Below are positions 6,436 through 16,208 of a DNA stretch of 30,861 nucleotides, piece by piece (positions within the stretch are counted from its first letter, which is position 1; every line of letters starts with the position of its first letter). The stretch is from NCBI GenBank assembly GCA_965371255.1, contig CBDUXS010000001.1, positions 1 through 30,861 of the forward strand, in the 5' to 3' direction. Source of the stretch: an uncultured bacterium. Its GTDB lineage: Bacteria; Gemmatimonadota; Gemmatimonadetes; Palauibacterales; Palauibacteraceae. The notes below the pieces were generated by a model. That model saw nothing but the letters and a program-made list of their open reading frames with translations, did not search any database and had not been told where the DNA came from. The position numbers and the translations under genes were made by a program.

Positions 6436-9400
6436 TCAGTTGAACGGCCGGGCGCGCTCGATCCACTTATCCAGGTCCTTCTCTCGCGGGTTGAGCGGCG
6501 TCCCGGGATGGATGATCGCGGCCGGGCATTTCTCCGCGGCCTTGACGAGTTGCGCGAATGTGCCGGCGGCAGCGTCCTTGATATACGCCTGCTTGTTGTC
6601 GTCGTAGGCGAACAGCTTCTTGTTGATGTCGAGGCAGTCATCGCAGGTCGTGCACAGAGCCGTCTCGATGTACGGCGCCATCGCGAGATCCTCGTCATCG
6701 TCCTCCGTTTCAGGCTCGGCGGCGGGCGCTGTCGCCACAGCCGCCTGCTCGGTCACTGAGGCGGTTCCGGTCGAGTCCCCTGCGAACGGCTCGACCAGGT
6801 CGGCGCCACGCGCAGAATTGAACGACACCGGCGGTGCGCTTGCTGCTTCTCTCAGCAGGTCCTCGATCGTCCGATTTCCGTCCCCTGCACCAAGCAGTCC
6901 TGCCGCGAGCCGCCTCGCTACGAGCTTCGGATAGTCCGCCTTCAGCTCCTTAATTCGGGATTCGTAGTCCGAGCGAATTGCCTCCGCCCGGATCTCGAAT
7001 TCGGCCTCAAGGTGAGCTGTATCGAGCCCGGCCAGTTCCTTGAGCTGGGACCAGAACAGCTGGCGGTCCTCGGCCAGCTCGACGATCTCGCTGGACACGC
7101 TCAGGCGGTCGAGGCGCCGATCGTCCCGCAGTGTGTAGACGAATGGTGCATGGTCCTCGCGTTCGTCGGCCGACAGGTCGAAGTACTCATGGAACGGCAA
7201 GTAGTCTTCGTCCGCATCATCCGGAATCGGCCTGAAGTGTTTCCTGAATCGGCCTTCCGTGGCGGCCCAGTCGGCGATCGTGAGCGGGAGGTCCATCGTC
7301 CGCTCGGCCCCCTCGTCGTCCACGTAGGCAAGCTCGTAGCTGGGCCATGCGTCCTCGACGTCGGGATTCCCCTCCAGATCGAGACAGTCGGCGACCGTGT
7401 CCCCAGCGTCGGGATCGTACACCAGAAACGGAAACGCCCGGCTCTCGAGCGCCAGCTTGGCGGAGTGCGGCGCCCACTCGTCGGCGACACCGTGCTCGAC
7501 CGGACAGGGCGTGTAGATGTTGAACACGGCCGGGCGTCGGGAGTTGAGGCCGCGCAGGATGCCCTGCATCATGTGCGAGGCCGACGCCTGCGACGTTTGC
7601 AGCACGTACGCGCCCCTGTGGGCCAGGGCGATGAGGGCCATCTCCTTGCGGGTCTCTTCTTTCCCGTGCTGCACCTGCCCGTAGGCCGCCATGTCGGCGA
7701 TCTGCCCCGTGAATCCGCTCGTGCACGACTGCCCGCCTGTGTTGGAATACACCTGCGTGTCGAGGACGACGACGCGAATCGGTTTTCCGGACGCGAGCAA
7801 CCGCGACAGGTTCTGGAATCCGATGTCGAGCATCGCACCGTCGCCGCCCATCGCCAGGATCGGCGGACACAGGTGGAATTCGTCGTCGTCGAACTGCGTC
7901 CAGTCGAAGGCTCCGAAGAACGGTTCGTGCTCGTCGGCGTCGTACTCGTCGCGAGCCAACAACTCGGCCCGACGGATGCTGATGAAGTTGTCCGCCATTT
8001 TCCGCATGTGGCCCTCGAACAGGCCGATCGCGATCGACGGAGCGTCCTGGAACAGATGGTTGACCCAAGGGAAAGGGTACGGATTGTAGGGGTACGTGCT
8101 TCCCCATACCGACGAACAGCCCGTGGAGTTGCTGATCCCCATCGGCGCGCGTCCCTGCCCGCCGGGCCCTTCCACGTAGCGCCAGCGCAGGTCCTTCAGC
8201 TCATCGATCGCGCGGTTCAACAGGCGCAACCGTTCACCCGCGGCCGCATCCAGTGAGACGTCCACGTGGTCACCTTCCGCCTGACTCAGGCCCGCCACGT
8301 CGGCGTGGGACCCGACCAACTCGCGCGCCTTCCTGTCGAGCCGCTCAAGCAGGTCATCGAGGCGTGCGACCAGCGCTTCCACCCGCGGGATCATCAGCCC
8401 CTCGATCGTCGAAACGAGGATATGCACGGCCGTCTTCTCTCCGCAGCCCATGCATGCACCGTCACCGCCCACCATTGAACCGTAGTTTTTTTTCTTCAGC
8501 AGAAGCGAGGAGAGCACACCAATGCCCTCGTCGAGGTTTGAGATGTTGACGTAGCGGTCGTCCGTGTCGGGCAGGTTCTCCCACAGCCGCCAGTTACGGC
8601 GCAACTGCGCGACATTTTCGTCGTCCTGGCGAACCGTGATCAGCGCACCTTCCGGACACACGTCCACGCAGATGTTGCAGCCCTTGCAGGCCATCGGATT
8701 GACCGTGATGGACAGCAGGCCCCCCGTGCCCTTTTCGCGCGACTCGGGCAGGCCGAAGAACGGGCGCGTCCGTGCCAGGGGGAATCCGGCGATGTGCGGA
8801 AACACCGCGGCGAACTCCTCATCCACGGCCTTCCGGCGCTCGGCGTCCCAGTCGAGTTTCTCGATGACGTTCTGATACGCGGAGGTGAGCACGTCACCAA
8901 ACGTCGTAAACGGAACGCCCTGCATGATCTTGCGGGATTCCCGCCCGAGATGCCCGGAGATCTGCGTCAGGCGATTGAACGCGCGACCGTTTGACGCCGT
9001 CGCGATCGCCGCGTCGATCACCTCTTCCACAGTGTTTACCACCCCGGGGATCGCGGCGTCCGGGCACTGAATCCAGCACTGGCTGCACCCGGTGCACTTA
9101 TCCGCGATGAACTCGGGGATCTCGAACCGGATGTTCGTCATGTCCCGCACGCTGCTCGTGGCGGCCGGGATGGCGCTGATCGCCGCGAACGGGTCCGCGA
9201 TCACGTCTTCACCGGTCGTAGCGCAGAAAGCGCACACCTGCTCCCAGAAGCGCCCTGGATTCCCGACTCCGGGCTGCGCCTGCGGCACGTTCAGTCGACT
9301 CGGCAGCTCGGGCATCGCGTGCTCGCCGGGTTCGTCCGTTCCCACGTCTCCGTGCGGCACCGGCGTCAACTCGTCGAATCCGCGCCGAATGACGCGCACG

Positions 9401-11451
9401 TTGTCCTCGACAACGCGCTCGCCTTTGCCTCCGAACTTGGCCTGCATCTGGGCACGGATTCCGTCGAAAAGGGTCGCCTCGTCCAGGCTCTCGCGCTTCA
9501 TCAGCGGCGAAATACGGAAGAATGCGCCCAGGAAAGCCGCCCCCTGCATGCGGTAACGCAACTCGGCGTCCGAAGCCTCGCTAGTGGCGATTTCGAACCC
9601 GTCGACTGCGTGGACCTGGATTCCGCGCTCGACGATCGTGCGGCGGGCACTTGTCGGGAAGGATTCCCAGACTTCCTCCGGGCTCCTGTCACTCTGGATG
9701 ACGAACACGCCGCCCGCCGCCAGCCCGGCGAGCGGATCGCCGTTGCGGAAGACATTGGGATCCGGTGACAGGACGACGTCCACGTATCGGAGTTCCGCGT
9801 TGATCCGGAGCGGTTCTCGCGACAGCGTCGCATAGAAGTTCGTGGGTTGCCCCTTCTTCTCCGATCCGTACTTGGGATTCGCCTTTACGTTCAGACCCAG
9901 GAGTTCGAACGCCGTGAGCGCGATGTTCTTGCCCATCGTGATCGCCCCCCATCCACCGATCGAGTGGATGCGGAGCGAAATCGAATCCTCCGGCAACAGG
10001 TTCACATCGTCCGCGGGAGGCAGCGCCAGCCCAGAAATGTGCGGGTAGGCTTCCAGCAGCTGCTCCTGCCAGATCTGGAGCTTGGGAGCCTTCGTGTCCC
10101 GATGGATGAAGTCGATGGAGAGGTAGTACTGACGCAGACCCTTGCCCTCGGGCAGCATGTTGTCTACGGCAGCCAGCAGATCAGCGGGTTGCAGGTCGCG
10201 GCTCCCGAACCCGAAGCCCGCCGAATAGAACTCCGGCATGTCGTCGGGCGACACCGGAGTGAGACCGGCGTAGGGAGTCCCGCTCCGGGCCCGCCAGTTC
10301 TCCATCCCCTGGGCCAGGGCGACGCGGATCTCCCGCAGCAACGGCGCCTCTACAGCCAGGGGCTGATCGGTCCGCTCGAGTACGGTGACCGCTCGCTTGC
10401 CGTGCAGCAGGGCCGTCACGAGATCGGCCGGGAAGGGACGGAACATCGTCAGGTTGAGAACGCCCACCTTCAGACCGCGCTCGGCTCGCAGATAGTCGGC
10501 CACCGCCTCGGCGTTGGGCACGACCGACCCCTGGCCAGCCAGCACGTAGTCGGCGTCGTCGAGCCGGTATCCTGATGCCCGGCGGTACATGCGGCCCGTG
10601 AGCTTCTCGTATTCCTCCATGGCCCGGTCGGTCAACTCGGCCACGTGGTCGAAGTAGTACGGCCGCTGCGCTGCGACACCCTGGGCGTACGATTCCTGAT
10701 TCTGAATCACTCCGAACATCGCCGGATAGTCCAGGTCGAACATCTCCGGAATGCGCCGTCGTGTGGCGCCGTACACGAGGCGCTGGGCGGGTGTCGGGCA
10801 ATCGATCACATCCGCGGGGTCGCCCAGGTACTCCTTGATCAGCTCCCGCTCGGGAAGCCGGATGGACTCGATTACGTGACTGGTGAGAAACCCATCCTGC
10901 GCGCTCATTCCCGGGTTGAGCGACAGTTCGGCGATCCTGTGCGCGATCAGCGTGAGGTCAGCTGATTCCTGAACGTCTTTGGCGAACAACTGGAAGAAAC
11001 CCGTGTCGTCGATCGCGTGGTAGTCGTCGTGGCCGGCATGCACGTTGAGGGCATGTTTGGTCATCGCACGCGCCGCGACATTGAGCACGTAGGTAAGGCG
11101 CTTGCCGACGGCCGCGTATAGCGACTCGTGCATGTACGCGATTCCCTGGCCGCTCGAGAAATTGGCAGCCCGCAGCCCCATCATGCTCATGCCGGCCGTC
11201 ACCGCAGCCGCAGCGTGCTCCCCCTCCGGCTCGAAGAAAATCAGCCGTCGCCCGTTCACGTTTCTCTTGCCTGCGGCGACTGCTACCGCCCAGCCCTCAC
11301 CCATCTGCGTGGACGGCGTGATCGGATAGGCGCCCGCCGCCTCGCTGGCGGCCGTCTCCATCGCCACGACGGCCTCGCTCCCGTCCATCGCCTCCAGGAT
11401 GCCCGGATACCTGGGCGGGGCGGGTTCGACGTTGCGGCTACGCTTCAACAT
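6436..11451 (-). CDS. nifJ: NifJ-type pyruvate:ferredoxin oxidoreductase, enlarged (1671 aa), with fused C-terminal ferredoxin
   Basis: YPITPST, NVAARAM, CTGCSQCWIQCP, CKGCNICVDVCP, GACMGCGE, STGCSSVWG, GGDGAMLD, YSNTGGQ, PCP. Equivalents of the pyruvate-binding Thr/Arg/Asn are present. C-terminal CTTCDDC...KCP. Confidence 0.92.
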   Translation of the reverse strand: MLKRSRNVEPAPPRYPGILEAMDGSEAVVAMETAASEAAGAYPITPSTQMGEGWAVAVAAGKRNVNGRRLIFFEPEGEHAAAAVTAGMSMMGLRAANFSSGQGIAYMHESLYAAVGKRLTYVLNVAARAMTKHALNVHAGHDDYHAIDDTGFFQLFAKDVQESADLTLIAHRIAELSLNPGMSAQDGFLTSHVIESIRLPERELIKEYLGDPADVIDCPTPAQRLVYGATRRRIPEMFDLDYPAMFGVIQNQESYAQGVAAQRPYYFDHVAELTDRAMEEYEKLTGRMYRRASGYRLDDADYVLAGQGSVVPNAEAVADYLRAERGLKVGVLNLTMFRPFPADLVTALLHGKRAVTVLERTDQPLAVEAPLLREIRVALAQGMENWRARSGTPYAGLTPVSPDDMPEFYSAGFGFGSRDLQPADLLAAVDNMLPEGKGLRQYYLSIDFIHRDTKAPKLQIWQEQLLEAYPHISGLALPPADDVNLLPEDSISLRIHSIGGWGAITMGKNIALTAFELLGLNVKANPKYGSEKKGQPTNFYATLSREPLRINAELRYVDVVLSPDPNVFRNGDPLAGLAAGGVFVIQSDRSPEEVWESFPTSARRTIVERGIQVHAVDGFEIATSEASDAELRYRMQGAAFLGAFFRISPLMKRESLDEATLFDGIRAQMQAKFGGKGERVVEDNVRVIRRGFDELTPVPHGDVGTDEPGEHAMPELPSRLNVPQAQPGVGNPGRFWEQVCAFCATTGEDVIADPFAAISAIPAATSSVRDMTNIRFEIPEFIADKCTGCSQCWIQCPDAAIPGVVNTVEEVIDAAIATASNGRAFNRLTQISGHLGRESRKIMQGVPFTTFGDVLTSAYQNVIEKLDWDAERRKAVDEEFAAVFPHIAGFPLARTRPFFGLPESREKGTGGLLSITVNPMACKGCNICVDVCPEGALITVRQDDENVAQLRRNWRLWENLPDTDDRYVNISNLDEGIGVLSSLLLKKKNYGSMVGGDGACMGCGEKTAVHILVSTIEGLMIPRVEALVARLDDLLERLDRKARELVGSHADVAGLSQAEGDHVDVSLDAAAGERLRLLNRAIDELKDLRWRYVEGPGGQGRAPMGISNSTGCSSVWGSTYPYNPYPFPWVNHLFQDAPSIAIGLFEGHMRKMADNFISIRRAELLARDEYDADEHEPFFGAFDWTQFDDDEFHLCPPILAMGGDGAMLDIGFQNLSRLLASGKPIRVVVLDTQVYSNTGGQSCTSGFTGQIADMAAYGQVQHGKEETRKEMALIALAHRGAYVLQTSQASASHMMQGILRGLNSRRPAVFNIYTPCPVEHGVADEWAPHSAKLALESRAFPFLVYDPDAGDTVADCLDLEGNPDVEDAWPSYELAYVDDEGAERTMDLPLTIADWAATEGRFRKHFRPIPDDADEDYLPFHEYFDLSADEREDHAPFVYTLRDDRRLDRLSVSSEIVELAEDRQLFWSQLKELAGLDTAHLEAEFEIRAEAIRSDYESRIKELKADYPKLVARRLAAGLLGAGDGNRTIEDLLREAASAPPVSFNSARGADLVEPFAGDSTGTASVTEQAAVATAPAAEPETEDDDEDLAMAPYIETALCTTCDDCLDINKKLFAYDDNKQAYIKDAAAGTFAQLVKAAEKCPAAIIHPGTPLNPREKDLDKWIERARPFN

Positions 11452-12299
11452 CTTGCTTCACTTTCAACCAGTTCCAGATCCGGAAAGACTTGCGCCCCAT
11501 CTACCCAGACGATCGCGTTCGTCGGGCAACGGGCGATCGCGGCCGGGTTCTCCAGTTCGATCCGCTCGTAGTCAATCACTGCGAGGCCCGAGCGCATCTC
11601 GATCAGCCCGGGATCCGCGTCCGCCACGCAGCGGCTGCAGGCGTTGCAGGCGACCGAGCAGACCGATGTTGCCGCCTCGCCGTCGAGCAGGTTTCGGCAC
11701 TGGACGATCAGGTGGTGGTGTTCCGGCATCAGCACGAACAGGTCGAGCGGGCAGGCGACCACGCAGTCATTGCACGCAGTACAGTTTTCCGGAATGACTA
11801 CCGGCAAGCCGAAGGACGTCATGCGGATCGCCTCGAACGTGCACGCGACCGCGCAGTCGGCCAGACCGACACAACCCCACGCGCATCCCTTCCCGCCTCC
11901 GCTGACGGACACGGCCGCGGCACAGCTCTCGAGGCCATAGTACTCGGCCTTCTGAACTGCTACATCAGATCCGCCGGCGCACAACAGACGGGCAACCCGC
12001 TTTTCCACTTCGCCCGCCTCCACTCCGAGCGTTTCCGCAAATTCCTCGACCTCGAACTCGCCCATCACCGTGCACTCGGCCGGGACCACGTCACCGTGGA
12101 TCGCAGCCTCCGCGAACGCCCGGCAGCCGACGTAGCCGCAGGCTCCGCAGTTCACGCTGGGCAGGATGTCGGACAGCAGATCGATCCGTGGATCTTCCCA
12201 TACCTTGAGCTTCCAGTGGGCCAGCGCGATCAACATTCCGAAGGTGAGGCCTACCCCACCCAGAATCGCTACCGGCGTCAGAAACGAGGCGACATCCAC
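11445..12299 (-). CDS. rnfB: Rnf complex subunit B (membrane-anchored polyferredoxin)
   Basis: N-terminal TM helix, EDPR, LPSVNCGACGYVGC, CAWGCVGLADCAVAC, CTACNDCVVACP. The terminal ferredoxin domain is partly degenerate. Confidence 0.93.
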   Translation of the reverse strand: MDVASFLTPVAILGGVGLTFGMLIALAHWKLKVWEDPRIDLLSDILPSVNCGACGYVGCRAFAEAAIHGDVVPAECTVMGEFEVEEFAETLGVEAGEVEKRVARLLCAGGSDVAVQKAEYYGLESCAAAVSVSGGGKGCAWGCVGLADCAVACTFEAIRMTSFGLPVVIPENCTACNDCVVACPLDLFVLMPEHHHLIVQCRNLLDGEAATSVCSVACNACSRCVADADPGLIEMRSGLAVIDYERIELENPAAIARCPTNAIVWVDGAQVFPDLELVESEARC

Positions 12300-12311
12300 G
12301 GATCGATCCCC

Positions 12312-13334
12312 TCAGGCGCCGGGTGCGAGGTCGGCCTGCTGCAGGAGCCAGCCTGCCAGGCGGTCTATGGGATCATCGTCTTTCCGTCCCTCCTGTCCGG
12401 CGACGACCGACGACGCGGGAGCCGCGGAATTCGATGGCCGGGTGCTCGCCAGTTCGCCGAGATGTGCGAGATCCTCCGTCTGACGGAAGCTCGACAGGGA
12501 TCCGATGGCATGCAGGGTCCCGGGATCAGGGAGTTCACCGACCGAGAGCCGATCGGCGTAGACGGCACCGGCATCCGGATCATGAACGAAGGGGATCAGC
12601 CCTTCGGAACCCACGGCGGCGACGGCGGGCCCGGAAAACGAGGCCACGCGGGCGAGGTCATCGGCCTCGTGGGTCTGTACGACGAGCACGTGCGGCGACA
12701 CCAGGCGCGCGAGCGGCGCAGGCGCCGCCGTGCCGCGCACCACGAGAACGATCTTTTGCGCCCCGTCGAGAAACTCTGCCAGGGCAGCCGTGTCGAGGTC
12801 GCTGCCATTCACATCGATGAACAGCGGTGGCGCCACGGCCCGTTCGCCGCGACTCCACAGCGAAAAGGCGTAGCCGTGAGGAAGGCTTCCGGGATCCAGT
12901 GCCGAGCCGTGGCCATCCAGCAACGGCGCCACCTGCCGAATCACTCCGAACACGCGCCCAACCTCGGCCAGGGTCTTCGCCGCAGTGTCCCGCAGATCTC
13001 CCCCCGACGGGACACGGGCGCACAACAGATCCGTGCCCCTGGATTCGGCAGCCGTGAGCGTTTCGAGGGCCCGCTCAACATGACGCAGGTCATCCGTCTC
13101 GAGAGTCTCGGGTGGCGCAAGAAGGGCCGAAAAGAGCCTCGCATCGACGTGACCGGCACCGAACGCTCCGAGTTCCGCGGCTACGAGCTCCTCGGGCTCG
13201 CCACGGGATGTCCCGTGCCGGACGAGAAATGCCCGCAAGTCCTCGATCGCCCGGGCAAGCGACGAGTGGAAGGCCTCAGATGGCGCCTGCATCGCCGCGA
13301 GCGCCTCCGTCATCAGCGAATCTTCAGACGGCAT
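12312..13334 (-). CDS. Hypothetical protein; degenerate paralog of the PFOR C-terminal (TPP-binding) region
   Basis: Intact 340-aa ORF overlapping the korB stop. Collinear motif matches to the neighbouring PFOR, e.g. PFVHDPDAG vs FLVYDPDAG. Lacks GDG, YSNTGGQ and the cluster Cys. Confidence 0.8.
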   Translation of the reverse strand: MPSEDSLMTEALAAMQAPSEAFHSSLARAIEDLRAFLVRHGTSRGEPEELVAAELGAFGAGHVDARLFSALLAPPETLETDDLRHVERALETLTAAESRGTDLLCARVPSGGDLRDTAAKTLAEVGRVFGVIRQVAPLLDGHGSALDPGSLPHGYAFSLWSRGERAVAPPLFIDVNGSDLDTAALAEFLDGAQKIVLVVRGTAAPAPLARLVSPHVLVVQTHEADDLARVASFSGPAVAAVGSEGLIPFVHDPDAGAVYADRLSVGELPDPGTLHAIGSLSSFRQTEDLAHLGELASTRPSNSAAPASSVVAGQEGRKDDDPIDRLAGWLLQQADLAPGA

Positions 13335-14274
13335 GGCGGTCGAGCTCCTCGTTCAGGATGGCGACTTTCTCGGCCGCGGTCTTTGCCGGCGCGCGCCGCA
13401 TCTGCTCGTAAATCGGCAAAGACTCGTTTCGGTACAGAATCCCGATGCGAACCTTGTCCTCGTCCTCCGCCAGTCGTCGGGCCTCGTCAAGGTCGGACGG
13501 ATCATGCCGCACACGGTCCTGGTAGCGAGACTCGAGCGCCTTGATGTCCAACCCATCCTCGTGGACAAGGAGCTGCACGGAATCCGGGTTTTTGGGGGCG
13601 TCGCCGAACATGTCCGGCGTAAAGTGCGGACATCGCTGAAGGACGCGCACGAAAGAAAACCCCGGATGGTGATATGCCGCCTGCAGGGTTGCAAACAGGT
13701 GAGCCGGGATCCACTCGGCCGTCTGGGCCACGAAAGAGGCGTTCGTGATTCCGAGCGAGGCGACCACCGGGTTGATCGGCGGTAACCAGCTTCCCTGCGG
13801 TTGCGTGTTGCTCACGTATCCCTGAGGCGTGGTCGGGGACGTTTGCTTCTTGGTCATTCCGTAGATCTGGTTATCGAGCAGCAGCGCGACCATGCCCACG
13901 TTGTAGCGAATCGCGTGCACCCAGTGCCCGGCTCCGATCGAGACGCAGTCCCCGTCCCCCATCACGACGAACACGCTCAGGTCCGGCCGGTGGAGCTTGA
14001 CACCCGTGGCGATCGGGAGGGCCCGGCCGTGGATGCCGTGGAACCCGTACGTGCTCATATAGTGGGGAAACCGGCTCGAACAACCGATGCCGGACACAAA
14101 GACCGTCTTCTCGGGAGGGAGGTTTTCCTCGGCGAGCAGTCGCTGCATGGAGGCAAGGACCGAATGGTCACCACAGCCCGAGCACCAGCGGGCCTGCGCC
14201 CCTTCGTAATCGGACATGCCGAACTCGCGATCGTACTCTCCCGCAATCTGTAACAGCGAACAGGCCATGCTCAC
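13324..14274 (-). CDS. korB: 2-oxoacid:ferredoxin oxidoreductase beta subunit (TPP-binding); substrate not certain
   Basis: WCSGCGD, SGIGCSSR, HGIHGRALPIATG, MGDGD, DNQIYGMTKKQTSPT, QRCP. GTG start overlaps the korA stop with GGAGG upstream. Confidence 0.9.
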   Translation of the reverse strand: MSMACSLLQIAGEYDREFGMSDYEGAQARWCSGCGDHSVLASMQRLLAEENLPPEKTVFVSGIGCSSRFPHYMSTYGFHGIHGRALPIATGVKLHRPDLSVFVVMGDGDCVSIGAGHWVHAIRYNVGMVALLLDNQIYGMTKKQTSPTTPQGYVSNTQPQGSWLPPINPVVASLGITNASFVAQTAEWIPAHLFATLQAAYHHPGFSFVRVLQRCPHFTPDMFGDAPKNPDSVQLLVHEDGLDIKALESRYQDRVRHDPSDLDEARRLAEDEDKVRIGILYRNESLPIYEQMRRAPAKTAAEKVAILNEELDRHAV

Positions 14275-16208
14275 TCCGAGCCTCCTTCGGACAGGTTGGA
14301 GCGAATCACATCGAGGATCACCCCCGGACGCAGCGGCTCGCCGAGCACGCGGGTCCAGCAGTCCACGTCACACAAGGTCTGGGCCCGCAGGAGCCAGGTG
14401 AGCTGCCCGCGGCGGCGGTTTTCATCGGTGATGTATGGCATGTCCGGATCGTCGCTGTAGTTGATCTCGATGGTCATCACTTTCTTGAATCGGCCAAAAA
14501 TCTCCTTCAGGCCGGGCTCGAGCGGAGACAGGAAGCGCAGGTGAAGGCTGGAAACAGACAGGCCTTCGTCGTTTGCCCGGTCGACTGCCTCCTCGATCGC
14601 GCCCTTCGTGGATCCCCAGCCGACAAGCAGTAGGTCACCGGATTCGTCGCCGTTCACGGTTGGCGGCACGAGCGAGCGCTGCAGCACGGCCAACTTGCGG
14701 CTTCGCATGGCACTGCCCCGCTGATTGACCTCCGACGTGTAGGCGACTTTGCTCCCCTCGTCGTGCGCGAGCCCCGTCACTGTGTGCATGCCTCCCGGCT
14801 GACCCGGGATGAACCGACGGGACAGGCCCGTGCGGGAATCCCAGTCATAGGGCCTGAGGTTGTCGGGAATCGGGCTCTGGTCTGGGGCGGGCGCTTGCCA
14901 GGCAGTGTCCAGTTCGGGGCGGTGGAAGGGCTGGACACCAGTCGCCAGATTCGTATCCGACAGGACCATGACGAGCGTGCGGAAAGTCTCGGCAATCCGC
15001 CGCGCCGTAATCATCACGTGAAAACACTCTTCTATCGTGGCCGGCGCGATGATCACATGAGGGGCATCGCCCGGCTGCCCGAACATTGCGGCGAGCAGGT
15101 CGGACTGCTCGATCTTCGTTGGGAGGCCGGTGCTGGGGCCTCCACGTTGCACGTTTACGAGGACGAGCGGGATCTCGGTCATCACGGCGAGACCGAGGAA
15201 CTCCGTCTTGAGTGCCAGTCCGGGTCCGGACGTGATCGTGAATGCAACCTTGCCGCTGTATGAAGCCCCCAGCGCTACGCCAGCGGCGGCGATTTCATCT
15301 TCAGCCTGGTGAATGATCCCACCGTAATGCTGGAAGACGCTGCCGAGATGATGAGATACCGAACTGGCAGGAGTGATGGGATACATCGCGGCGAGCTCCA
15401 TGCCCGACGCGATCGCGCCCATCGCGATGGCCTGGTTGCCGTTCATCACGACCATCGCCTCGTCCGTCACGGCTGTGGGTACGCGGATACGAAAGTCGAG
15501 GTTGTTGCGAGCCCAGTCGATGCCCGCATCCAGCATGAGGAAGTTCCGATCGATGATCGCCTGGCTCTTTTTCTTGAACACGAAGGCGATCTGCTTGCGG
15601 ACCAGCTCGGCGTCTCGCCCGTAGATCTCCGTCAGCATGCCGAGGGCAAACATGTTCTTGCCCAGTGTCGGATCCTCGACCAACTGTGCGCACACCTCGT
15701 GCATCGGGACCTCAATGATCCGATAACTCGTATTTGAGAGCTCTTCGAGGGCCGCACGCCACTCGGCCTGAATGTCCTCGTCCGGGTGGTCCGCCCACCG
15801 ATTCTCGAGCAGGATGACCGCGTCGTGTTCGAGCGCCCCGAGGCGATGCCGATACAACAGGACCTGCTCGTTGAACGCTATTACGAGGTTGGTACGATCT
15901 CCCCAGTTCGTTACCGGCCCGGAACCGAGGCGGATGCGGTTTCCGCTGGCAGCGGTGGGATTTCGCGGGGGAGGCTGCACCTCGGAGGGGATGATTTCTA
16001 CCGTCCACACCCCGTTTCCCATCTTGGCGGACACGGTGCCGAACAACTGACCACAGCGCTGCGCCCCCTCACCGGGGTCGGACACGACCTCAACGGTGTG
16101 GGAAGAGGTTTCCAGCGTTTTCGACTCGGGCGCAGCGGGAGCATCCAATTCGAGCATTGGAAGTCTAGTCATCATGCCAGATTTCGCCGTGTTTCGCATT
16201 CGCGTCAT
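14271..16208 (-). CDS. korA: 2-oxoacid:acceptor oxidoreductase alpha subunit (gamma-alpha fusion)
   Basis: MNGNQAIAMG, YPITP, QAEDEIAA, TSGPGLALKTE, VQRGGPSTGLPTK-EQSD, VGWGST. The exact start is uncertain (16208, 16199, 16175 or 16157). Confidence 0.9.
   Translation of the reverse strand: MTRMRNTAKSGMMTRLPMLELDAPAAPESKTLETSSHTVEVVSDPGEGAQRCGQLFGTVSAKMGNGVWTVEIIPSEVQPPPRNPTAASGNRIRLGSGPVTNWGDRTNLVIAFNEQVLLYRHRLGALEHDAVILLENRWADHPDEDIQAEWRAALEELSNTSYRIIEVPMHEVCAQLVEDPTLGKNMFALGMLTEIYGRDAELVRKQIAFVFKKKSQAIIDRNFLMLDAGIDWARNNLDFRIRVPTAVTDEAMVVMNGNQAIAMGAIASGMELAAMYPITPASSVSHHLGSVFQHYGGIIHQAEDEIAAAGVALGASYSGKVAFTITSGPGLALKTEFLGLAVMTEIPLVLVNVQRGGPSTGLPTKIEQSDLLAAMFGQPGDAPHVIIAPATIEECFHVMITARRIAETFRTLVMVLSDTNLATGVQPFHRPELDTAWQAPAPDQSPIPDNLRPYDWDSRTGLSRRFIPGQPGGMHTVTGLAHDEGSKVAYTSEVNQRGSAMRSRKLAVLQRSLVPPTVNGDESGDLLLVGWGSTKGAIEEAVDRANDEGLSVSSLHLRFLSPLEPGLKEIFGRFKKVMTIEINYSDDPDMPYITDENRRRGQLTWLLRAQTLCDVDCWTRVLGEPLRPGVILDVIRSNLSEGGSE

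Follow-up and report, generated by a model that had tools for sequence, protein, structure and literature searches.

The window, a 30,861-nucleotide stretch of DNA from an uncultured member of the Gemmatimonadota, carries on its reverse strand korA and korB, a gene encoding a 340-residue protein here called X, rnfB, and a giant PFOR of 1671 residues. Anaerobic and microaerobic energy conservation, like reductive carbon fixation, relies centrally on 2-oxoacid:ferredoxin oxidoreductases and Rnf. The genes and the features by which they are connected are as follows.

14271..16208 (-): korA, alpha subunit with domains III-I-II (TIGR03710, 508 bits, above its cut-off)
13324..14274 (-): korB, beta subunit of the X-linked KorAB clade (PF02775, TIGR02177)
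13345..13350 (-): GAGGAG, a putative Shine-Dalgarno-like hexamer inside korB, 10 nt ahead of the start codon of X (sequence)
13324..13334 (-): 11 nt shared by the start of X and the stop of korB, ATGCCGTCTGA (read from the sequence)
12312..13334 (-): gene X (protein P0001), a 340-aa cofactor-less paralogue of PFOR domain VI (open reading frame and translation)
11445..12299 (-): rnfB, whose start lies 12 nt beyond the stop of X (PF04060, TIGR01944)
7192..8454 (-): domain VI of the giant PFOR (P0002 residues 1000-1420), the closest relative of X (hhalign, model against the PDB, phmmer to 6CIN)
6508..6660 (-): single-cluster ferredoxin (Fer4_13) tethered to the C-terminal end of PFOR (PF13370, residues 1598-1648)

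X is a genuine gene, and the large family to which it belongs has no name; this family counts at least 315 homologues when clustered at 90%, and 417 clusters when the identity is set at 50%. The original prediction that it belongs to no named family was borne out, with zero matches to Pfam and NCBIfam at E-values up to 0.01, and every source-given name seen for a family member was "hypothetical protein". A profile search of PDB sequences returned nothing relevant and no ThDP enzyme. The Pfam and NCBIfam families of the Rnf subunits (RnfA-G) were likewise not matched, hhalign against an RnfB profile yielding scores of 12-13, and the nearest proteins in protein-language-model space were uninformative (scores up to 0.83, AAA/NACHT noise). 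No description of the korAB-X-rnf-PFOR operon or of the X protein was found in the literature, and no clearly RNA-labelled sequencing run was found to contain the sequence. An antisense open reading frame of 684 codons (11490-13544) was rejected as a gene, as it matches no family and selection acts in the X frame.

Coupling and co-inheritance of X with korAB

The sequence indicates that translation of X is tied to that of KorB at a constant ratio by the 11-nt stop/start overlap, which lies behind the GAGGAG hexamer and has exactly the same length in 70/70 related loci. The N-terminus of X, M-P-S-D/E, is conserved because it is forced by this overlap. KorB is encoded upstream of X in 73/73 loci and rnfB follows X in 71 of the 73, and the gene order korA-korB-X-rnfB-PFOR-rnfCDGEA recurs at approximately 80 loci, all of them in MAGs, with no cultured carrier seen. 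By sequence, the catalytic motifs of the korB product are complete (CxxC, GCS, GDG, N and C-P-H-F).

X is inherited only alongside the giant PFOR and a KorAB of a special clade. It was present in 52 of the 301 genomes sampled, about one-sixth of the sampled Gemmatimonadota, and all 52 also encode the giant PFOR and a member of the special KorB clade; this clade (at least 60% identity) occurred in X-positive genomes only. Both the coupling to korB that had been proposed and the suggested co-occurrence with an rnf-linked PFOR, which proved near perfect, were therefore upheld. The reading frame of X is intact in 52 genomes and at approximately 80 loci, and the gene is not decaying, because dN/dS in close pairs is 0.09-0.23, far below 1, compared with 0.01-0.15 for KorB and 0.03-0.17 for RnfB; neutral decay, the outcome against which the intact frame was to be checked, is not supported.

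Kinship of X with PFOR domain VI

X and domain VI of the neighboring PFOR are remotely homologous. The parts of X on which the comparison turns are listed below.

13023..13289 (-): N-terminal long helical hairpin, X residues 16-104 (secondary structure, X model against the PFOR C-half model)
12525..12857 (-): alpha/beta core, X residues 160-270 (hhalign register, VIA-align)
12576..12590 (-): F-V-H-D-P motif, X residues 249-253 (BLASTP high-scoring pair, near-invariant columns)

Direct comparison by BLASTP produced one high-scoring pair only, the 25-aa PF.VHDPDAG stretch (E 0.03). When a profile of the X family was aligned by hhalign to a profile of the giant PFOR built from 36 sequences, X residues 122-276 matched PFOR residues 1149-1370 in 155 collinear columns, with a score of 43-44, P of 7-9e-5 and a probability of 59-64%; reversed-sequence controls reached scores of 20-21, and KorB, a true TPP-domain protein, scored below X against the same PFOR profile (34, P 1.3e-3). 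The invariant positions shared by X and PFOR comprise W, E, PP, G, D, GK, Q, P, F-x-x-DP and G, and E164, D179, K194, Q220 and D252 of X align with invariant PFOR residues. The F-V-H-D-P motif corresponds to F-L-V-Y-D-P of the giant PFOR and, by way of the PFOR-6CIN alignment, to W-P-L-Y-R-Y-N-P of canonical PFOR. A further connection is provided by the X-Fd subfamily, in which X is fused to a PFOR-type Fer4_13 tail, and whose members align (MAFFT) to both X and the PFOR tail, bridging the two. An origin of X from KorB was considered and rejected, the hhalign score between them being 21-23 and not significant.

The eight pairs of X and PFOR peptides that had been quoted in the original prediction all exist and are collinear. 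The first six fall in the hhalign register, whereas the last two, the LAHLGELAS and IDRLAGWLL pairs, lie outside the confident local alignment; their support is indirect and comes from the MAFFT alignment of the X-Fd subfamily.

Structural comparison points in the same direction. The AlphaFold2 model of X (pLDDT 85.7) matches the model of the PFOR C-terminal half element by element in the order of its secondary structure, and domain VI of the PFORs from Moorella thermoacetica (6CIN) and Desulfovibrio africanus (1B0P) shows the same order of helices and strands. The four parallel strands in the core of X correspond, in the PP domain, to the GDG strand, the strand of the second TPP motif and the two strands after it. 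Foldseek searches of AFDB clusters returned E-values of 2e-10 to 6e-7 at a probability of 1.0, with alignments covering X residues 7-271; all seven non-self matches (7/7) recur in the top 10 of the PFOR C-half model, whose E-values against the top AFDB proteins that also match X are 1e-22 to 1e-31. The C-half model (mdee90630c322) in turn matches the solved PFORs 6CIN and 1B0P at E-values of 1e-12 to 1e-10. In the ESM Atlas, the clusters nearest to X carry PF02775 and PF13370, with TM scores of 0.50-0.53 over 230-274 residues. The AFDB and Atlas neighbors of X are 496-834 aa long and contain Fer4 domains.

Against the PDB, Foldseek found nothing for X below an E-value of 0.1 (best 0.17) and no direct match to a solved PFOR; the weak top matches were all ThDP enzymes. 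When X was compared with all PDB clusters by VIA-align, generic helical hairpins prevailed among the matches (Z up to 8.1); the method also aligned approximately 120 residues of X to the PP domains of AHAS (1jsc), PQO (9ev4), PoxB (3ey9) and HACL (8vzc), with Z of 5.0-5.9. X thus has the alpha/beta fold of a PP domain by VIA-align, Foldseek and Atlas alike.

The N-terminal hairpin is a lineage-specific trait common to X and the Gemmatimonadota-type PFOR of approximately 1700 aa encoded 1 kb downstream, which is closer to X than the canonical enzymes are. In canonical PFOR, probably only about 25 residues separate the second Cys of the CxxC motif from the third cluster Cys. The corresponding distance in the giant PFOR is approximately 109 residues (C4 and C113). 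Two helices followed by a strand occupy this position in the PFOR C-half model (5-50 and 70-94) and recur in X (16-41 and 80-104), so that, on the models, the hairpin of X corresponds to the one inserted between the cluster Cys of the giant PFOR.

The hhalign match, moderate when taken alone, makes a convincing case for common descent from PFOR domain VI when combined with the fold evidence, and the predicted collinearity of X with the C-terminal part of the neighboring PFOR held at P of about 1e-4 in hhalign and at E 2e-10 in Foldseek. We consider it very improbable that the resemblance reflects convergence or a chance match of Rossmann-like folds, or that X is a decaying duplicate. The absence of a Pfam match, the single 25-residue BLASTP pair and the weak PDB matches could be read in that way. 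The profile match, however, is collinear, includes a dozen shared invariant positions and beats the true-homologue control; the same proteins are structural neighbors of X and of the PFOR C-half, X-Fd proteins link the two, and both dN/dS and the frame preserved across genomes and loci speak against decay.

Loss of cofactor chemistry and retention of polar residues

Despite this kinship, X has lost the Mg/TPP loops, the Cys residues that hold the proximal cluster, the beta-rich subdomain and the ferredoxin tail of PFOR, while the fold and the hairpin are kept. The relic of the metal-binding motif lies in the following segment.

12798..12812 (-): degenerate GDG Mg/TPP relic V-N-G-S-D, X residues 175-179 (column counts, 253 members)

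The Mg2+/diphosphate motif GDG-X(24-27)-N is absent from X, which reads V-N-G in its place and has the N-containing loop deleted. The Asp position of GDG is occupied by N in X of this window and by D in 136/253 family members (54%), and G177 is kept in 247/253. A deletion also takes the place of the YSNTGGQ loop. The four Cys that bind the proximal [4Fe-4S] cluster, all of them invariant in giant PFORs, have no equivalent in X: family members contain 0-5 Cys, no column is conserved among the 253 members (the best reaches 31%), and X of this window has a single Cys, C104. It also lacks the C-terminal succession of helix, acidic linker and Fer4_13 that occurs in PFOR and in the X-Fd subfamily described below, and has no Fer4 match. 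The claim that the GDG motif, the YSNTGGQ loop and the cluster Cys are gone was thus confirmed at the level of family columns. In all, approximately 180 residues of loops and beta subdomain are deleted relative to PFOR domain VI, and, in contrast to that domain, X is a free-standing protein that stays below every Pfam and NCBIfam threshold, including the sequence threshold of PF02775 (TPP_enzyme_C).

Among known proteins, the beta subunits KorB and PorB (Sulfolobus tokodaii 5B46, Magnetococcus marinus 6N2N) resemble X in being free-standing proteins of approximately 300 aa with a PP-type fold encoded beside korA. Unlike them, X has neither TPP nor cluster ligands, and it is additional to a complete KorB rather than a replacement for it.

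Several polar residues of X (E164, R165, D179, D190, K194, Q220, H251, D252 and R262) are conserved in over 80% of members, with Q220 present in 253/253. These could form a ligand-binding or catalytic site of X's own rather than an interface, which would count against a role as an adaptor. On such an account, the old scaffold of X was put to a new use, whether in ligand binding, regulation or catalysis, and X might, for example, sense CoA, acyl-CoA or a nucleotide and thereby regulate KorAB, PFOR or Rnf. The retained polar residues, some of which have no PFOR counterpart, are consistent with it; yet X matches no ligand-binding family, and the five of them that align with invariant PFOR residues may be structural. 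We regard this account as rather unlikely.

X-Fd proteins and the proposed role of X beside KorAB

The X-Fd subfamily comprises four diverged clusters (P0286, P0382, P0384 and P0385). Its korAB-X-Fd operons, found on three independent contigs, contain neither PFOR nor rnf. The possibility that P0286 is a one-off assembly chimera was rejected, since three more diverged clusters and three independent contigs show the same architecture. P0392 was rejected as a fifth fusion, being a PFOR fragment cut at the contig end. In the X tree, which is unrooted, the X-Fd proteins group together as one clade; we take them as a derived subfamily, although they could be ancestral instead. Solo giant PFORs without adjoining korAB or X lack the Fer4_13 tail. 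At one further locus (L001), the order is korA-korB-X-PFOR without rnf, and X directly follows korB. Since X is retained in L001 and in the X-Fd operons, both devoid of rnf, it tracks KorAB and not Rnf, and a third subunit of the special KorAB therefore fits better than an Rnf docking factor. The original proposal of a scaffold or adaptor accordingly stands in its non-catalytic, KorAB-associated form, while its example of docking KorAB onto Rnf fits less well.

The C-terminal end of X bears on how such an association could be made.

12375..12437 (-): disordered, weakly conserved linker, X residues 300-320 (pLDDT, gap-rich columns)
12327..12371 (-): conserved C-terminal helix D-P-x-D-R-L-A-x-W-L-L-x-Q-A-D-L, X residues 322-336 (model, column counts)

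In the AlphaFold model, residues 306-319 of the linker have pLDDT below 50. In the helix, which is probably a docking helix, L326, A327, W329, L330 and L331 are each retained by 237 or more of the 253 members (94-99.6%). Judging from the alignment through the X-Fd proteins, the helix may be a remnant of the PFOR helix Y-P-x-x-V-A-R-R-L-A-E-G-L-L.

This helix could alternatively dock X on Rnf (RnfB or RnfC) or on the membrane, its main task then being to anchor soluble oxidoreductases at the pump. The proximity and regular succession of rnfB behind X and the presence of a short conserved helix behind a disordered linker would agree with this, as would an analogy with PoxB (match 3ey9), a ThDP enzyme that binds the membrane through a C-terminal helix. 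Against it, X is kept where the operon has no rnf, and the helix is weakly amphipathic by eye. We judge anchoring at the pump or the membrane to be quite unlikely.

X is thus a pseudoenzyme, copied from the C-terminal half of the giant Gemmatimonadota-type PFOR, where TPP is bound (domain VI). We think it probable that it acts as a non-catalytic third subunit or adaptor of the special KorAB, the partner being one that we infer. Its PFOR-like surface and tethered C-terminal helix would hold KorAB beside a ferredoxin-type carrier, which in the full operon would be the tethered Fer4_13 of PFOR and/or RnfB, and in the X-Fd subfamily its own fused Fer4_13. Electrons from 2-oxoacid oxidation, or those destined for 2-oxoacid synthesis, would then enter the ferredoxin/Rnf route of PFOR. 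Apart from the polar residues discussed above, this adaptor reading must contend with the rate of evolution of X, two to three times faster than that of the neighboring genes, and with the small number of independent cases in which the ferredoxin tail is linked to korAB-X.

The same rate, exceeding that of the catalytic subunits, would suit an assembly or maturation factor absent from the mature complex. X would in that case transiently cover the PYR-domain face of KorA or of the N-terminal half of PFOR until the cofactor-loaded TPP domain is placed, a task for which a protein having the fold of the real partner domain without its cofactors appears well made. The strict 1:1 translational coupling with korB at 70/70 loci is, however, more typical of a stoichiometric subunit, and the X-Fd subfamily bears a redox domain that a chaperone would not need. 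A maturation factor is in our estimation unlikely. In a more elaborate arrangement, X would be the physical adaptor of a single membrane-bound supercomplex made up of RnfB, the special KorAB, and the giant PFOR together with its tethered ferredoxin. Such a complex would couple the oxidation or reductive synthesis of 2-oxoglutarate and pyruvate directly to ion translocation by Rnf without free ferredoxin, X mimicking the surface of PFOR at which the tethered ferredoxin docks; this is a speculative extension to which we give limited credence.

An adaptor of KorAB would have partial parallels among accessory subunits. The delta subunits PorD and KorD are, like X, accessory proteins encoded with catalytic OFOR subunits; they differ from it in being 2x[4Fe-4S] ferredoxins, Cys being conserved nowhere in X. 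The epsilon subunit is an accessory subunit of the five-subunit OGOR of Hydrogenobacter thermophilus. To our knowledge, the subunit sets of OFOR and Rnf modules (alpha, beta, gamma and delta) include no cofactor-less TPP-domain paralogue, and the X family is widespread, under selection, and kept in an operon of rigid layout that also encodes KorAB, Rnf and a giant PFOR with a tethered ferredoxin. If X indeed wires KorAB to the tethered ferredoxin, it would illustrate the channelling of low-potential electrons without a diffusible carrier, and the adaptor would offer a way into reconstitution of the complete KorAB-PFOR-Rnf module. With their fused ferredoxin, the naturally occurring X-Fd proteins provide a minimal system of KorA, KorB and X-Fd.

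Operon organization and conserved genomic context

On the minus strand of the window lies a single tightly packed gene row, running from korA through apbE according to Pfam and NCBIfam assignments, within which the feature under study is a 340-aa ORF, referred to here as X.

Genes of the row (names from Pfam/NCBIfam, except X)
16208-14271, minus strand, korA
14274-13324, minus strand, korB
13334-12312, minus strand, X, 340-aa ORF
12299-11445, minus strand, rnfB
11451-6436, minus strand, PFOR of 1671 aa (giant PFOR)
After PFOR in the row, minus strand, rnfC, rnfD, rnfG, rnfE/A and apbE

The start codon of X lies within the 3' end of korB, producing an 11-nt overlap (ATGCCGTCTGA) with GAGGAG preceding, and 12 nt separate its stop from the rnfB start. 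A 684-aa antisense ORF opposite X and rnfB (11490-13544, plus strand) matched no family and was dismissed as a spurious high-GC artefact.

Nearly all of 80 loci drawn from species-representative genomes keep the order korA-korB-X-rnfB-PFOR-rnfC-D-G-E/A. KorB is encoded upstream of X in all 73 loci with room for it, and rnfB lies downstream in 71 of the 73. The overlap is 11 nt without exception (70 of 70 loci), bearing out the coupling to korB that was read in the window, and because it is fixed, the N-terminus of X is conserved as M-P-S-D/E.

In an even sample of 301 Gemmatimonadota genomes, X was detected in 52 and giant PFOR in 53. In the co-occurrence check that the original prediction had suggested, giant PFOR accompanies X in 52 of 52 genomes, the one apparent exception (G109) being a PFOR cut by a contig end. 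Identity to the window KorB is bimodal phylum-wide: proteins at least 60% identical occur only in X-positive genomes, adjoining X, while paralogues at most 53% identical occur in genomes with and without X alike, and many X-positive genomes hold both sets. X is obligatorily coupled, in genetic terms, to a dedicated KorAB and is co-inherited with giant PFOR.

The genome of origin contains one X and one giant PFOR; its assembly comprises 1.46 Mb in 260 contigs (estimated completeness 85%; relatives 2.4-4.7 Mb), and the sequencing runs containing the window sequence are marine sediment metagenomes. The same operon occurs in MAGs labelled Planctomycetota, Acidobacteriota and Acidimicrobiia (L033, L071, L073, L076, L081). 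The X sequences of L033, L071, L073 and L081 nest amid Gemmatimonadota X in the tree (e.g., L081 beside L063), which suggests either mis-binning of the contigs or a recent transfer. In one genome that is nearly complete (G238:C1:1424572-1431851), X breaks off at residue 247, a fragment of 104 residues represents korB, and PFOR is in pieces and contains an in-frame TAG; the whole module may be in decay here.

Homology of X to PFOR domain VI

The original prediction regarded X as a catalytically stripped copy of the PFOR TPP domain (domain VI) on the basis of eight peptide pairs, all of which were located in both proteins in collinear order. BLASTP alone backs one stretch, F-V-H-D-P-D-A-G (E 0.03). 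When the X family profile was compared with a 36-sequence giant PFOR profile, X residues 122-276 aligned with PFOR 1149-1370 over 155 columns (score 43-44, P 7-9e-5, probability 59-64%), recovering six of the pairs in identical register. The C-terminal helix of X, which forms the last pair, is bridged to the PFOR helix via fusion proteins, X-Fd, in which X carries a PFOR-type ferredoxin tail. Reversed PFOR profiles, used as a control, scored 20-21. KorB, itself a genuine TPP-domain protein in which every motif is present, reached only 34 (P 1.3e-3) with that PFOR profile, below X, indicating that X is nearer to giant-PFOR domain VI than this true member of the family. The X profile matched neither KorB (score 21-23) nor RnfB (12-13).

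The AlphaFold2 model of X (mean pLDDT 85.7) runs from a long helical hairpin through a strand and a long helix into an alpha/beta core of four parallel strands; after the core come a helix, a disordered linker and a short C-terminal helix. The same elements recur in the same order in the model of PFOR 1000-1560 (pLDDT 75.9). Four segments of that model are missing from X, namely the loop that binds the cluster, the TPP loop, one helical stretch and a subdomain rich in beta structure. Foldseek searches of AlphaFold-DB clusters with X returned its own family first, and then seven proteins 496-1271 aa in length, labelled 'Ferredoxin' or '4Fe-4S ferredoxin-type domain-containing protein' (four), 'Putative oxidoreductase, Fe-S subunit' (one), uncharacterised (one) and unnamed (one). 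Six have E-values of 2e-10 to 6e-7 and cover X from residues 5-11 to 271-272; the seventh (1.8e-3) covers 114-271, and probability is 1.0 for all. All seven are in the top ten for the PFOR C-half model (E 1e-22 to 1e-31), which itself matches the solved PFORs 6CIN, 1B0P and 7PLM (E 1e-12 to 1e-10). Several of the clusters closest to X in the ESM Atlas carry PF02775 (TPP_enzyme_C) and/or PF13370 (Fer4_13), at TM 0.50-0.53 over 230-274 residues.

Matches of X to solved structures are weak throughout, and the best core-reaching PDB entries are PP domains of ThDP enzymes, at Z 5-6 over about 120 residues (AHAS 470-647, PQO 355-532, PoxB 356-529, HACL 368-541). In giant PFOR, the third cluster cysteine is about 109 residues away from the second cysteine of CxxC; in canonical PFOR we take this spacing to be about 25. 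We read the helical hairpin common to X and giant PFOR as an insertion specific to giant PFOR, which fits the weak PDB signal. Profile and structural comparisons together show the homology, and we conclude that a giant-PFOR-type domain VI gave rise to X.

Loss of cofactor sites and selection on X

Residue counts over 253 X family members confirmed the loss of the GDG motif, the YSNTGGQ loop and the cluster cysteines that the original prediction described. At the position of the Mg-binding Asp of GDG, only 54% of members have D and the window X has N, the loop with the Y-S-N-T-G-G-Q asparagine is deleted, and cysteines number 0-5 per member, conserved in no column, whereas all four cluster cysteines, GDG and N are invariant in giant PFOR. 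Residues kept in both include W160, E164, P169-P170, G177, D179, G191, K194, Q220, P236, F249, D252-P253 and G256. Those conserved in X alone include R165, D190, H251 and R262, along with a P-A-P-L-x-R-L stretch and the L-A-x-W-L-L-x-Q helix at the C-terminus. One alternative account of X is that the old scaffold has taken on a new ligand-binding function. X shares fold and descent with PF02775/PFOR domain VI but falls short of it on all the diagnostic sequence and cofactor features, and is thus a pseudoenzyme relative with no functional membership. It is neither a delta-type ferredoxin subunit nor an Rnf subunit.

A search of 5.8 billion proteins yielded more than 315 X homologues, all about 335 aa, mostly from Gemmatimonadota where the source is named, and when 1.84 billion cluster representatives were scanned exhaustively with HMMER, 417 clusters matched at E ≤1e-3. 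Consistent with the proposed lack of a named family, X matched nothing in Pfam or NCBIfam; most homologues are unnamed, and the source-given names seen are all 'hypothetical protein'. Fifty aligned sequences (36-84% identity) share 18 invariant columns. Nei-Gojobori dN/dS, computed on the same loci for pairs with dS of 0.1-0.4, was 0.09-0.23 for X, 0.01-0.15 for korB and 0.03-0.17 for rnfB; X is therefore under purifying selection, though constrained two- to threefold more weakly than the catalytic genes beside it, and these values exclude a decaying duplicate. X homologues in G283:C2:588151-589185 and G259:C1:867136-868101 each contain one in-frame TGA, which could reflect sequencing error, a pseudogene or recoding.

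X without rnf and its proposed role

In a MAG labelled Deltaproteobacteria, the order is korA-korB-X-PFOR, with no rnf genes nearby. The X-Fd subfamily comprises four diverged clusters (P0286, P0382, P0384, P0385; 457-479 aa, from JGI and Logan) joining X residues 1 to ~295 to a tail consisting of a Y-P-Q-L-x-A-R-R-L helix, an acidic linker and a Fer4_13 ferredoxin. P0382, P0384 and P0385 match the P0286 tail region (residues 240-457, as queried) at 62-89% identity. On three independent contigs (P0286, L088:639-2012; P0385, L090:384-1775; P0382, L091:679-2070), X-Fd follows a korB that belongs to the clade of the window KorB, again overlaps it by 11 nt, and is the last operon gene, being followed by unrelated or convergent genes; rnfB, PFOR and rnf are absent after it on all three, and no fusion was found among the 301 sampled genomes. 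In the maximum-likelihood tree, X-Fd forms one clade (100/100), sister to one ordinary X (96/87). At midpoint rooting, a provisional root, it falls inside the X tree, suggesting that it probably derives from a deletion joining X to the PFOR tail. X might alternatively serve as an anchor on Rnf or the membrane through its C-terminal helix; across these loci, X follows KorAB rather than Rnf.

No paper on X was found in the literature. The present analysis adds a homology test calibrated by controls, the statistic for a coupling of exactly 11 nt, the co-occurrence of X with one KorB clade, and the X-Fd subfamily. We read X as a probable pseudoenzyme accessory subunit of an OFOR; it would act as a non-catalytic third subunit of this KorAB, serving as an adaptor, while a transient assembly factor is a rival role. 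To our knowledge, KorAB enzymes of the two-subunit type lack a ferredoxin domain, and within the operon the ferredoxin-type carriers are limited to RnfB and the tethered Fer4_13 of PFOR. The lineage without PFOR and rnf would have retained KorAB-X and shifted the tethered ferredoxin onto X, which argues that X sits near the KorB cluster, where such a carrier is useful. Two solo giant PFORs (L085:11111-15613 in G136, 1500 aa; L087:9326-14053 in G282, 1575 aa) have no korAB, X or rnf alongside and both are missing the Fer4_13 tail, so that the tethered ferredoxin seems to go with the korAB-X context.
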